NCBI GenBank assembly: GCA_964016885.1
Contig: OZ024743.1
Location: 361,460,001-361,524,000 of the forward strand
Direction of reading: 5' to 3'
Length of the DNA stretch: 64,000 bases
Source: Eledone cirrhosa
Lineage: Eukaryota
Part shown: positions 5,113-11,740 of the stretch, in pieces
How the letters are laid out: every line of letters starts with the position of its first letter
Position numbering within the stretch: the first letter of the stretch is position 1
Made by a program: the position numbers and the translations under genes
The notes under the pieces: generated by a model
Told to the model about the DNA's origin: nothing
The model's input: the letters and a program-made list of their open reading frames with translations, nothing else
The model's database searches: none

Positions 5113-6048
5113 AAATTAATATTTGATGAACATTTACATGTTATAGTTGCAATTGACTAATAAGATCGCTAGAGTGAAAAATCTTAATTCAACAACATAA
5201 GGTCTGCCTGTACGATCTAGAAAATAATAAATCAATACTCACAGACTCATATGGGCAAAAAGCCTTGGTACCTAGACACGTTTAAAATTCAAAATACAAA
5301 CTTTTTCCGCAGATCGGTCAGAACTTCAAACTTCAAACATGTTTCACAAAGAATGGTATAATAGTAAAATAATTAACTAATTAGCAGTGAGTTAATCAAC
5401 TTTTTCTGTGTTTATCAATAGGTATCCAGATAAAAATAAAATAACTCAACCTTAGAAAAATATCTAAGGTCTGGTTAGCGTAGCGAAAATACACGAGGTT
5501 TTGCACACGGCTTATTCCAGTCCTCTAACGTCCCACACATAGTGCTAGAAATAACAGCCGTTTGTATGGGATTACAAAATTCAGCTCACCTTGGGGAGCA
5601 GTGATAAATAGCTTAGAGTTTAGACTCAGAGAGGTCATTTACAATCATTTCAGCTCTAGGGTACCTATTGATAAACACAGAAAAATTTGATTAACTCACT
5701 GCTAATTAGTTAATTATTTTACTATTATACCATCCTTTGTGAAACATGTTTGAAGTTTGAAGTTCTGACCGATCTGCGGAAAAAGTTTGTATTTTGAATT
5801 TTAAACGTGTCTAGGTACCAAGGCTTTTTGCCCATATGAGTCTGTGAGTATTGATTTATTATTTTCTAGATCGTACAGGCAGACCTTATGTTGTTGAATT
5901 AAGATTTTTCACTCTAGCGATCTTATTAGTCAATTGCAACTATAACATGTAAATGTTCATCAAATATTAATTTATACTGCTCAGAAGCGATTCCTAGAGC
6001 TGAAATGATTGTAAATGACCTCTCTGAGTCTAAACTCTAAGCTATTTA
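5113..6048. repeat. Fold-back element with two interlocked inverted repeat pairs, flanked by (TA)n
   Basis: 5113-5425 is the near-perfect reverse complement of 5661-5974. 5605-5660 is the reverse complement of 5993-6048. Confidence 0.95.
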
Positions 6049-6173
6049 TATATATATATATATATATATATATATATATATATATATATGTGTGTGTGTG
6101 TGTGTGTGTGTGTGTGTGTGTGTGTGTGTGTGTGTGTGTGTGTAAGTAGTCACACAACAGTTAGTTCACCATA

Positions 6174-6214
6174 CCGAGAACAATTGTTTCACCTTATGTA
6201 GATCTTCAGCTCGA
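6174..6214 (-). ncRNA. Minimal hammerhead (family 3)
   Basis: tcgag-CTGAAGA-tctacataaggt-GAAA-caattg-TT-ctcgg: stem I paired, palindromic stem III ACAATTGT, weak stem II. Confidence 0.7.
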
Positions 6215-6418
6215 ACTCCAGTTCGTATAAATCCATTCTGACGTTGGTGAGACACAAAGTTGTGTAGGACACGAGGATATAGAAAGCGCTCACAAGGTAG
6301 AAAGCCAAACTTCCGCGTGTTGAAAAGAATCTGCTGACCGGTGCTGGAAACGTATATCGAGGTAGAACACTGGAAGATAATATCCGTAATGGTAGAGCAC
6401 TCAGTCTATGGGATGAGT

Positions 6419-6459
6419 CCGAGCTGAAGATCCGCATAAGGTGAAACAATTGTTTACGG
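6419..6459 (+). ncRNA. Minimal hammerhead (family 3), inverted copy
   Basis: ccgag-CTGAAGA-tccgcataaggt-GAAA-caattg-TT-tacgg. The 3' strand of stem I is partly mutated. Confidence 0.65.
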
Positions 6460-7799
6460 TATGGTGAACTAACTGTTGTTACTACTTCTACCAAACTCGT
6501 CCCGTGGACTGAGTGCTCTACCACTACGGATATTACCTTCCAGTGTTCTACCTATCTGTCTCTCTCTATCTCTCTTTATACACACACACACACACACACA
6601 CACACACACACACACACACACACACATATATATGTGTGTGTGTGTGTGTGTATGTTTATGTGTATGTGTGCGTGTGTGTGTGTATTTATTGTTGTGTGTA
6701 TGTACAAATTGACAATTTTCACAATTTGATATAACATCCTCAAATAAGGCGAAGCCATGAAATGTGTCTGAAGCAACAATTATACCGTTGCCTATAGCAA
6801 AAGAAACGTGTTTGATATATACTTTCCTCAAACGAGAACGGAACTTGACTTGCATACGTCAAACGGTAAGATCTTACTCTTATCTGTATATGGATTATAC
6901 TAATTAATTTGTCTTGATATATCATAAATGTTCCATATTTTAAGGCAGAATTCATAACCCGCTTGTCTAATTCACTAACAATGAAAATCAACAGATTTTA
7001 CAGCAGCAGCTGATTGAAACCGTGTTATTACACCGAAACATCGAGTATTTGCCTGCCCTCATATTTACTTACAACACACCTATCTATGGTTTTATCTACG
7101 ACGTTAACCAGATTGTTAGTTTATACTTCGTATATTCTAATGTACAGAACTTTGATAAAGAATATTTTTTATCCATGTGTATCAGGAATTATAAATACTT
7201 TAAACCGATTATTAGGGTTCAACATGTGTATACATATATATTAGTTTTGATTAGCTTTTTGTAATATAATACTACGGAGAGATTATGTTTTCAGTCTCCA
7301 TTGCATATGATAGTTTTGACCTCAGTTATCTAGAGCTATGAGTTAATACAGAATATCAATATTTACCATGAAATGTCAAGAGTAATTTATGAGGGAGTTT
7401 GGTGGTTAATTAAAGTCAAATGATTGCTAGAAAGTTTTGATTTTATGGTTATTCAAGTACATTTATTAACTGAAAGGCATGAACAATAGTAGCCTTCATT
7501 TAGTAACAAAGGCACGCAAATTACTAAGTTGAATTACTTCTGCTCCAGGATTCAGTGAATTCATCTACCCTGATTTAGCTTAATAACTAATTAGTTGCGT
7601 TTGCATTATGAAATTAACCATATCAGCCGTGCTTAAAATCAGAATTGTTAGCATGAACATTGGTCATTCCACACTTGAGGGTAATCCAGCCAGAAGCATC
7701 AGCACGGAGTGATTGTGTTAAAATTGCTATCGACTTGCTCATTTCTTCAGGATCATGCTGATGAAATCCACCATGATAACTACTACTACTACTAATAAT

Positions 7800-7950
7800 A
7801 ATAATAATTGTTTCTACTTTTGGCACAAGGCCAGCAAATACCCAGTGCATTACTGGTACTTTATTTTATCGACCCCGACCCCGTAAGAATGAAAGGCAAA
7901 GTTAACCTCGGCGGGATTTGAACTCAGAATGGCAAGAGCCGTAACTCTAT
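7800..7950 (-). mobile_element. tRNA-derived SINE, 5' truncated
   Basis: Reverse complement of the 1087-1280 family, with (ATT)n tail. Confidence 0.85.
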
Positions 7951-7974
7951 GCGTCTAATAATAATAATAATAGT

Positions 7975-9714: not shown

Positions 9715-9780
9715 ATATGGAAAACGAATAATCAGTGATGCATCGGAACCGATGCATCACTGATTCTTCGTTTTCCATAT
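9715..9780. repeat. Near-perfect 66-bp palindrome
   Basis: atatggaaaacgaataatcagtgatgcatcgg-aa-ccgatgcatcactgattcttcgttttccatat, one mismatch. Confidence 0.95.
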
Positions 9781-10014
9781 TATCATTCTGTTCTCCGATG
9801 GAGCATAAAATGATCAAACGACATACCGCCTATGGACGCATCCTAGCAACCATACTATATATATATATATAAATATATATATATATATATATATATATAT
9901 ATATATATATATATATATATGAAGTATTTCCGTCAGAAAGGTACAGGAAAAGAGAGTGCTCTATGTAAGCTACAGAGCTTATTAGTTATGTAATAAACAA
10001 CATAAGATAATTAT

Positions 10015-10075
10015 TTCATTTACCAGTGGTTTCTTGAAGACAGTTGTTGCGTCTGTCTTCGGTCGTCAGAATGAA
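10015..10075 (-). ncRNA. Type I hammerhead (family 4)
   Basis: ttcatt-CTGACGA-cc-gaagacag-acgcaacaa-ctgtcttc-aa-GAAA-ccactgg-TA-aatgaa: 6-bp stem I, 8-bp stem II, GUA site. Confidence 0.8.
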
Positions 10076-11156
10076 TAGAAAACATGGTGTATTTATTAAA
10101 TATGGATTATATATATATATATATATATATATATATATATATATATATATATATATATATATATATATATATATAAACATAAATTGTCGTGATTCGCATT
10201 TCGGCCCACGAAATAATGAAAAACAACCTCCGAGATCTGAGGCAAGTGCTCAATGATTCAGATGAATCAGAGCTATAACAAACGTTAAAGGCCAAACACA
10301 CTGAGACGATGGTTAAACAATCATTCGCATAGCCAAAAAAAAACGATCAAGTAAATCGGGTATTGAAAATATACCCGGTCCCCTGGGATGTTGGTAAAAT
10401 CCAGTATTTGGGTTTCTGTGGCTTCTAAATCAAGTACCGTCCGCTTACATAAATAAGGTCAGGCTTCTGGTAAGATGATTGAACAAAGAAGCCACTTTCT
10501 CAACAAGTTTTAGTTCAATGTTAATACGAGGACTGACTATTGCTGACTCCACGTGGGGATCGGCAAGGGAGGCAGCCCCTATATCAGGCGAATACATTCA
10601 GTTGTGTATATTTTTGCAAGAATGCAAAAACATCACAAATCGAATAGAGTTCTCAACAGAAGGGTTAAAATTAACATAAGCTATTCATCAGTCAATAGAA
10701 TCAACTAAAAAATCAAGAAAATTAACTGGTCAATAGCTAGAGTCTGGAGATAAATACAAACATAATTTATCGAGATTCGCATTTCAGCCCAATATATATA
10801 CATACATTTTTTGAATTTTTTGGTTCTTATTTATGAGTACATATATATCTGCGTATATGTATGTGTATGTATTTATGTATATATCTGTGTATATGTATGT
10901 GTATGTATTTATGTTCCTGTCCGTATTTCTATGTAGACGCAAATACGCTTATGTGAGAAAGTATACGTCTACGTACTTTTTAGTATATGCACGGAGTTGA
11001 GTGTGTGTATGTTTATGTTCTGGATATTTATATTTTTATATATATATTTTTTATTTTTTCCCATATTTCCTTTTCGCCCGCTTTTTTCAGCCTCACTTTC
11101 ATATTTCCTAAATTTTGTTTTCAAATCCATATTTAATAACTACACCATGATTTTTA

Positions 11157-11214
11157 TTCATTCTGACGACCTAATACAGACACATCTGTCTTCAAGAAAC
11201 CACTGGTAAATGAA
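11157..11214 (+). ncRNA. Type I hammerhead (family 4), partner in inverted repeat 10010-10108/11125-11220
   Basis: ttcatt-CTGACGA-...-GAAA-ccactgg-TA-aatgaa. Stem II is partly decayed. Confidence 0.75.
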
Positions 11215-11244
11215 ATAATAATAAATATATATATATATATATAT

Positions 11245-11740
11245 AAATTTCGCTCTACATGACTGAATACAATAAATGTAATCTGAGTTTTCGATATTAA
11301 TAATAATATTCGATTCGTTTGCAATTATGCAAACAAGCCTCAATTTTAAAGCCATGTTAGTAGAATGAACCATTCATACTTACTCTTGTGTTGGTATGTA
11401 AACAGAACTGCAGACACTAATGTTTCTGGCTAATACCCTTCAACAGTACAGTTCACTGTTCACCTGCCAACTGTCAGAGCTAGTGAAAATATATGATATT
11501 TTCGAAAGTACACAGTGACTGATCGGCGTGATTTGCATATTAGCAGACTGGCTGATCAGTCAGATCTGCATATTAGCAGATCCACTGATCAGCCAGATTT
11601 GCATATCGAAAAACTCAGATTACATTTATTGTATTCAACCATGTAGAGCGAATTTTTTTTTCTTTTTAATATGGCAAAGCCGGCCATTGATCGCTCGTAT
11701 TCAGGAAACTGACTGGCCAGTCTGCTGATATGGAAATCTG
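11245..11740 (-). repeat. Third copy of the ~440-bp hammerhead repeat, with an inverted segment (11606-11740 on +)
   Basis: 11245-11605 is the reverse complement of ~1410-1765. 11606-11740 matches 1283-1420 directly. The HHR at 11406-11453 (-) has core CTGTTGA (A6 mutated). Confidence 0.9.

Follow-up and report, generated by a model that had tools for sequence, protein, structure and literature searches.

Twin priming of L1 elements, in which two target nicks prime two complementary DNAs (cDNAs) that are joined through microhomology, leads to a 5' inversion. Insertions of endonuclease-bearing (EN+) Penelope-like elements contain an inverted, 5'-truncated copy and a 30-40 bp tail (PMC8557442, PMC3846280), and the formation of Penelope tandem and inverted structures has been described as undefined (PMC8557442). 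According to the accessible part of a biochemical study, the Penelope protein cuts and extends both strands in vitro, and two internal start sites delimit the tail (PMC11167929). Retrozymes, their circles and a link to Penelope are described in the available portions of PMC7229834, bioRxiv 10.64898/2026.07.22.740005 and PMC4209133. Here we describe three small inverted elements, elements 1, 2 and 3, in a 64,000-nt stretch of Eledone cirrhosa DNA (OZ024743.1, positions 361,460,001 to 361,524,000, forward strand; hereafter the window), which is part of contig C4 of the 3.0-Gb genome. They are probably insertions of hammerhead-bearing Penelope-like sequences, each composed of one cDNA started at a fixed site T1 and one started at a fixed site T2 of an RNA longer than one unit, and not circularly permuted copies.

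Masked self-comparison and a repeat search detected the interlocked layout A..B A' L B', in which L is a linker, in all three elements, at nearly the coordinates where the initial annotation had placed these inversions. In element 1 the A arms (5112-5427 and 5659-5974) match over 316 nt at 99% with 3 mismatches, the B arms (5604-5660 and 5993-6049) over 57 nt at 100%, and the linker measures 18 nt (5975-5992). The A arms of element 2 (6144-6218 and 6415-6487) match at 89% and its B arms (6360-6418 and 6495-6553) at 92%, with a 7-nt linker; in element 3 the values are 93-94% for A (11245-11297 and 11603-11656) and 84% for B (11530-11560 and 11708-11738). Type I hammerhead motifs are present in all three elements, and within the window their families show no BLAST similarity to one another. 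The arms are arranged as follows.

5112..5660, minus strand: T1 arm of element 1, 549 nt of the 567-nt unit; its 3' end T1 is fixed, at 5112, and adjoins (TA)n
5659..6049, plus strand: T2 arm of element 1, 391 nt, beginning at hammerhead helix I; its 3' end T2 is fixed, at 6049, and adjoins (TA)n
5975..6049, plus strand: tail of element 1, an 18-nt linker and 57-nt B that make up the 75 nt from T1 to T2
6144..6418, minus strand: T1 arm of element 2, the 5' region of its parent joined directly to the hammerhead end (open reading frame deleted), core at 6209
6415..6553, plus strand: T2 arm of element 2, comprising the hammerhead (core at 6424), T1, linker and B, with the T2 end beside a TC-rich run
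11245..11605, minus strand: arm of element 3 ending at T2 (11245), core at 11446 with A6>U, predicted cut at 11413
11603..11740, plus strand: inverted arm of element 3, crossing T1, T2 and the unit junction, with a non-canonical end and no TA flank

The two arms of element 1 stand head to head and overlap by 2 nt at the inner junction. The interlock arises because the T1 arm, nearly one unit long, runs into the tail of the previous unit; the interlocked look is a by-product of arm lengths. The stretch between T1 and T2 is the known Penelope tail, and linker and B are simply that tail. The linker belongs to the element, as had been proposed, since that of element 1 lies between the units of genomic arrays with a period of 567 (one set of short-read contigs shows it as a loose end), and the inverted piece of element 3 indeed corresponds to the junction of a tandem array (11606-11738 against 1283-1420, 85.5%, E 3e-39). 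The earlier unit sizes of 565 and 440 nt agree with the 567 and about 435 bp found here, while the 280 nt given for the second element are true of this copy only. Family 1 forms arrays of up to 5.2 units and family 3 dimers, and neither element 1 nor element 3 overlaps a stop-to-stop open reading frame (ORF) of at least 110 amino acids. By their sequence anatomy the young element 1 and element 3 are non-long-terminal-repeat (non-LTR) retrozymes with tandem arrays, and the Penelope-type origin suggested earlier is supported. Given the E-values and the dozens of loci that share it, the inverted anatomy cannot be due to chance.

Genomic copies gave a first look at family 1 with 956 candidates, of which the best 40 were scored; the best copies are 98-100% identical. 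From 79 fetched loci, 58 were kept as non-redundant and uncut by the locus edge, and 42 of these are inverted. Their outer ends are constant, 95 of 100 lying on T1 (window 5112) or T2 (window 6049), 75 nt apart, and their inner breakpoints vary. Families 2 and 3 behave likewise, so that each family has two 3' ends, 25-75 nt apart. The initial annotation had read each insertion as the record of a circularly permuted template and proposed collecting copies, with fixed termini as the contrary outcome; the collected copies have fixed termini. Permuted termini are ruled out because the outer ends are fixed.

The two ends are also paired. T1 is combined with T2 in 101 of the 104 inverted loci that have both ends at fixed sites, namely in 43/45 for family 1 (114 loci input), 37/37 for family 2 (90 loci) and 21/22 for family 3 (60 loci). 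A query chosen for one end does not constrain the other, and the set obtained with a T1-only query shows the combination in 15/15 cases; by eye, two related retrozyme families (4 and 5) with 519- and 538-bp units show it in 8/8 and 9/9. Uninverted family-1 copies use T1 and T2 equally (8 end at each), so half of the pairs would be expected to be homotypic under independent choice. The single T1+T1 row (L126), although kept in the count, probably reflects a short fortuitous match to the flanking sequence, and L259/L260 are probably one duplicated insertion. An assembly artefact or unrelated DNA rearrangement is very improbable as a cause of these structures, given that the same rule recurs in five families and across many contigs, the arms having diverged and the breakpoints differing from locus to locus. 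Short-read contigs from three runs of one sample, none of which bridges the inner junction of element 1, are uninformative on this point.

The arms of a locus resemble each other beyond their ends. Subfamily-diagnostic sites agree between them in 18 of 19 informative loci, compared with a mean of 7.0 and a maximum of 13 for random partners (1000 draws), and seven locus-private variants are present in both arms. At 21 of 36 inner junctions there is microhomology of at least 2 nt, against an expected 18%, and 13/36 show a gap or mismatch instead. These data fit two cDNAs of one RNA, or of two RNAs from one source. Alternatively, the inverted arm could have been made by self-priming (fold-back), with T1 and T2 as endonuclease cuts that resolve the intermediate, as in the fold-back and endonuclease-resolution views of PMC3846280 and PMC8557442. 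Fold-back would account for the arm identity, for the 23/36 loci at which one arm is contained in the other and for palindromic junctions that recur, four loci having theirs at s412-413. It is excluded at 13/36 loci (one borderline), element 1 among them, because each arm there includes sequence missing from the other; T1 and T2 ends are equally frequent among uninverted copies, and the start sites reported in the accessible text of the in vitro study coincide with the tail ends (PMC11167929). We therefore consider fold-back copying improbable as the general route.

The hammerhead of family 1 appears twice in element 1.

5660..5819, plus strand: family-1 type I hammerhead with an 8-bp helix I, a U3-A8 core (5668-5674) and a helix III of about 20 bp; predicted cut after 5811
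5267..5426, minus strand: second copy of this hammerhead, in the T1 arm, core at 5418, predicted cut at 5275

A three-way fold is predicted for it, the U3-A8 core is kept in 153 of 155 matches, and helix I covaries across families 1, 4 and 5, with compensatory changes in the latter two. The U3-A8 core is a variant reported from Schistosoma Penelope-like elements, in the part of PMC4209133 available to us. Families 2 and 3 have conventional type I cores with a short palindromic helix III, on the strand with the T1/T2 3' end; most family-3 copies carry a canonical core, and that of element 3 has A6>U. Rfam returned no hammerhead or other real match for window positions 1-14000 or for a family-1 dimer. 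A motif scan requiring a 5-bp helix I and three of four helix II pairs finds family 1 and misses families 2 and 3, and the short motifs of families 2 and 3, folded as single strands, did not adopt the active fold, as expected for a dimer-type helix III.

Arms of family 1 tend to stop at the predicted cut. With two complex loci left out, 33 of 93 end between -7 and +31 of it (exposure 7.9%, p 6e-14) and only six in the 39 nt upstream; the pile-up was noticed before the ribozyme was located. The start of helix I is not significantly enriched (5/93, p 0.16). In family 3, read by eye, stops lie at unit positions 190-204 with the predicted cut at 194, one query having begun there. Arm ends just 3' of a predicted cut would fit self-cleavage of the putative ribozyme.

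Two young relatives of family 1 were also seen. One, of 538 bp, forms a long array region (G000:C18, about 11.55-11.64 Mb; L316-L345) and has A9>U in the core of most copies; the other, of 519 bp (L006 690-1260, L286-L315), has a canonical core and arrays longer than 3 kb.

Element 2 has a different background. It derives from a 2.6-kb Penelope-like element, also present in the window, of which it is a unique, internally deleted version.

40355..42986, minus strand: parent of element 2, full-length but decayed; its T2 end at 42986 is inverted, and it has remnants of a reverse transcriptase (RT) and GIY-YIG ORF, a hammerhead at 40418 and the T1 end at about 40350

Family 2 is mainly this 2.6-kb, ORF-bearing element, and all 29 of the fetched loci that match the parent endonuclease region carry the element-2 end. 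One locus (L268) has an open frame of 585 amino acids in which RT and endonuclease motifs, as well as a Cys-rich motif upstream of the endonuclease, can be read by eye; atlas neighbours of this frame carry HTH_animal and GIY-YIG, and a Pfam scan of the decayed window pieces was negative at E 0.01. With one ORF for RT and C-terminal GIY-YIG, and a pseudo-LTR with hammerhead, tail and inverted 5' copy, the family has EN+ Penelope traits, and it may belong to the Neptune clade, which is marked by a Cys-rich motif between RT and endonuclease and by RT phylogeny. Short family-2 copies have a different donor point each time and a nearly constant acceptor, the hammerhead start. There is no fixed 280-nt family unit because these donor points differ, and element 2 was rejected as a retrozyme for want of a fixed short unit common to the family. 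Splicing was also rejected as the origin of the deletions: the acceptor AG is kept and the donors vary. Inner ends pile up at the acceptor: a reading by eye, with a query that began there, gave about 13 of 29 T2 arms along with many free T1 arms. The acceptor lies some 40 nt before the cut, at an initiator-like sequence, and is likely a transcription start.

At the T2 end of family 2, a (TC)n run, mostly followed by (TA)n, was observed at 13 of 19 CCTC-subfamily ends and 0 of 19 CCAC ends (L031-L060, L200-L229, L256-L285; window 6553-6580). Slippage as reverse transcription began is the likely origin of this microsatellite.

The templates were longer than one unit, as 40 of the 58 family-1 loci have an arm exceeding 567 nt. 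The earlier proposal of multimeric or circular templates holds to this extent and fails for circular permutation; circular RNA templates may have been used. In three arrays (L028, in 5/5 units, L125 and L111) private variants recur in every unit, which implies a step from monomer to multimer. Such a step could be rolling-circle reverse transcription of circular monomers made by the ribozyme, still starting at T1 and T2, in line with the circle model in the accessible parts of PMC7229834 and PMC4209133, the latter of which also proposes circular templates. The retrozyme anatomy of families 1 and 3 and the private variants agree with such circles, as does the substitution peak of read-through arms at s399-421 (23 against 8.2 expected, scan-corrected p 0.001), which coincides with the predicted ligation site. 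However, 11 of the 24 arms that extend past a first cut site as far as the following one terminate at the latter, which requires a free 5' end; in L111, shared variants are not the same from one unit to the next within an arm; large genomic arrays can serve as linear sources; and the fixed ends exclude permuted termini. Some of this evidence suggests partly cut linear multimers, and rolling-circle copying appears doubtful.

A circle could also be mimicked by an RT that, having reached the 5' end of a linear RNA (cut or capped), jumped to the 3' end or an internal site of the same or another RNA. The short family-2 copies, element 2 included, would fit such a jump, as they join variable donors to a near-fixed acceptor at the pile-up of 5' ends, and so would the position of the family-1 substitution peak, which lies at and 3' of the cut and also outside helix I. 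Yet indels, of which 20 were read by eye, are not concentrated at that cut, the peak could be raised further by selection for changes that weaken the ribozyme, and the junction of element 2 has short similarity on both sides, such that a deletion at the DNA level would suffice. We regard such jumps as possible, if rather unlikely. Only tentatively do we propose a combined scheme, in which an asymmetric dimer on one RNA would prime the two strands at two fixed sites, and an RT crossing the cut junction, by way of a circle or an end-to-end jump, would regenerate multimers and leave a mutational scar. If true, the genome would record ribozyme cleavage in vivo and the route from monomer to array.

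Element 3 belongs to a family with a unit of about 435 bp, copies 85-93% alike and a T1-T2 distance of 25 nt. Its short arm is the exception to the pairing rule and was either primed at a non-canonical site or trimmed later. The array whose junction it shares lies near the start of the window.

831..1754, plus strand: partial tandem array of family 3, about two units, cores at 924 and 1571, a short interspersed element (SINE) at 1087-1281, ending at T2

This array abuts into the remains of a minus-strand Penelope-like element (window 1-846 and upstream; L230, L237-L248), whose own end has, by eye, a hammerhead-like motif with a long loop II; it was rejected as the family-3 parent since its end differs. 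One SINE was found repeatedly, with differing truncations, in ATT-rich sites, both in family 3 and in a further Penelope-like family (window 1087-1281; L240, L243-L245). Its presence in only one arm of family-3 loci was rejected as evidence, because the insertions are independent and the queries had selected uninterrupted T2 arms.

Further hammerhead and inverted elements occur in the window. An inverted pair (10007-10107 and 11125-11222) has a hammerhead-like motif on each strand, and a 135-bp palindrome (18781-18915) a hammerhead motif on both. Inverted-repeat elements were also observed at 17647-18154, 39062-40333, 43017-45722, 46350-49750, 50084-50476, 55354-56330, 56344-57489, 62806-63113 and 63677-63881, some around Penelope-like ORF remnants and several in which (TA)n directly adjoins one end while the other end is extended.

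Two-site priming, our preferred reading, would proceed as follows. A Penelope RT-endonuclease complex would nick both strands of a TA-rich target, and each nicked strand would start its cDNA at a site of its own, T1 for one and T2 for the other, on a single RNA that exceeds one unit (or on two RNAs from one source locus). Each cDNA would run toward the RNA 5' end, often halting at the ribozyme-cut end in families 1 and 3 and at the probable transcription start just before the ribozyme in family 2. Short microhomology would then serve to link the ends of the two cDNAs. The non-coding families 1 and 3 would be mobilised in trans.

Several points weigh against this reading. In the accessible text of the in vitro study, the start site does not differ between strands, ribozyme cleavage is dispensable and no RNA reads end at the cut (PMC11167929). 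No autonomous partner was found for families 1 and 3, nor any ORF continuous with the unit in the fetched loci. Five of 100 family-1 outer ends lie away from both sites, as does the right end of element 3, homotypic T2+T2 loci exist (L130 and L179), and the arms of L025 are discordant at diagnostic sites. Haplotype sharing cannot tell one RNA from two of one source, or from later gene conversion. The loci are the best-scoring 40 candidates per query and no random sample, the stop window of -7 to +31 was set after the pile-up had been seen, and no clear accumulation of stops is seen at the cut sites of families 4 and 5, whose queries forced the main arm past the site.

The structure is real and of a known class; on the sequence evidence, its regularities are well supported as patterns, with a proposed mechanism. 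Compared with published EN+ Penelope-like insertions, tails in this genome measure 25, 64-70 and 75 nt, elements 1 and 3 are non-coding, and the end rule is counted (101/104) and tied to arm haplotypes and ribozyme position. As far as the accessible description of Poseidon of Anolis (PAc) in vitro goes, the likeness lies in two RT starts downstream of the hammerhead that delimit the tail, in the cutting and extension of both strands and in the AT-rich target (PMC11167929). Unlike that description of PAc, which has no strand difference and no sign of a cleaved template, paired ends here are heterotypic and arm 5' ends pile up at the predicted cut; the start sites of the families also end in TA-like bases matching the target. 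Families 1 and 3 share with the non-LTR retrozymes described in the available text short non-coding tandem units, a type I hammerhead, dispersed and arrayed copies and a proposed role as Penelope passengers (PMC7229834; bioRxiv 10.64898/2026.07.22.740005). Relative to those, family 1 stands apart by its U3-A8 core and long helix III, and is known here from genomic DNA. Like L1 twin priming, the proposed process would involve two primed cDNAs and a microhomology-joined inversion; unlike the variable internal site of L1, the second start is fixed, 25-75 nt from the first. A literature search, outside of which most subscription papers and supplements lay, found no count of T1+T2 pairing, arm haplotypes or stops at the ribozyme cut. 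New are the counts of the T1+T2 rule, the same-haplotype arms, the stops at the predicted cut and the excess substitutions in read-through arms.

The hammerhead of family 1 is a variant overlooked by Rfam and simple motif scans, and the young, 99%-identical retrozyme family forms a clean natural data set. The T1+T2 rule, the haplotype sharing and the stops at the cut each yield a prediction for the existing in vitro system, described in the accessible text of PMC11167929. Under two-site priming, the anatomy of these insertions would be direct genomic evidence of Penelope-type mobilisation of retrozymes, beyond co-occurrence.

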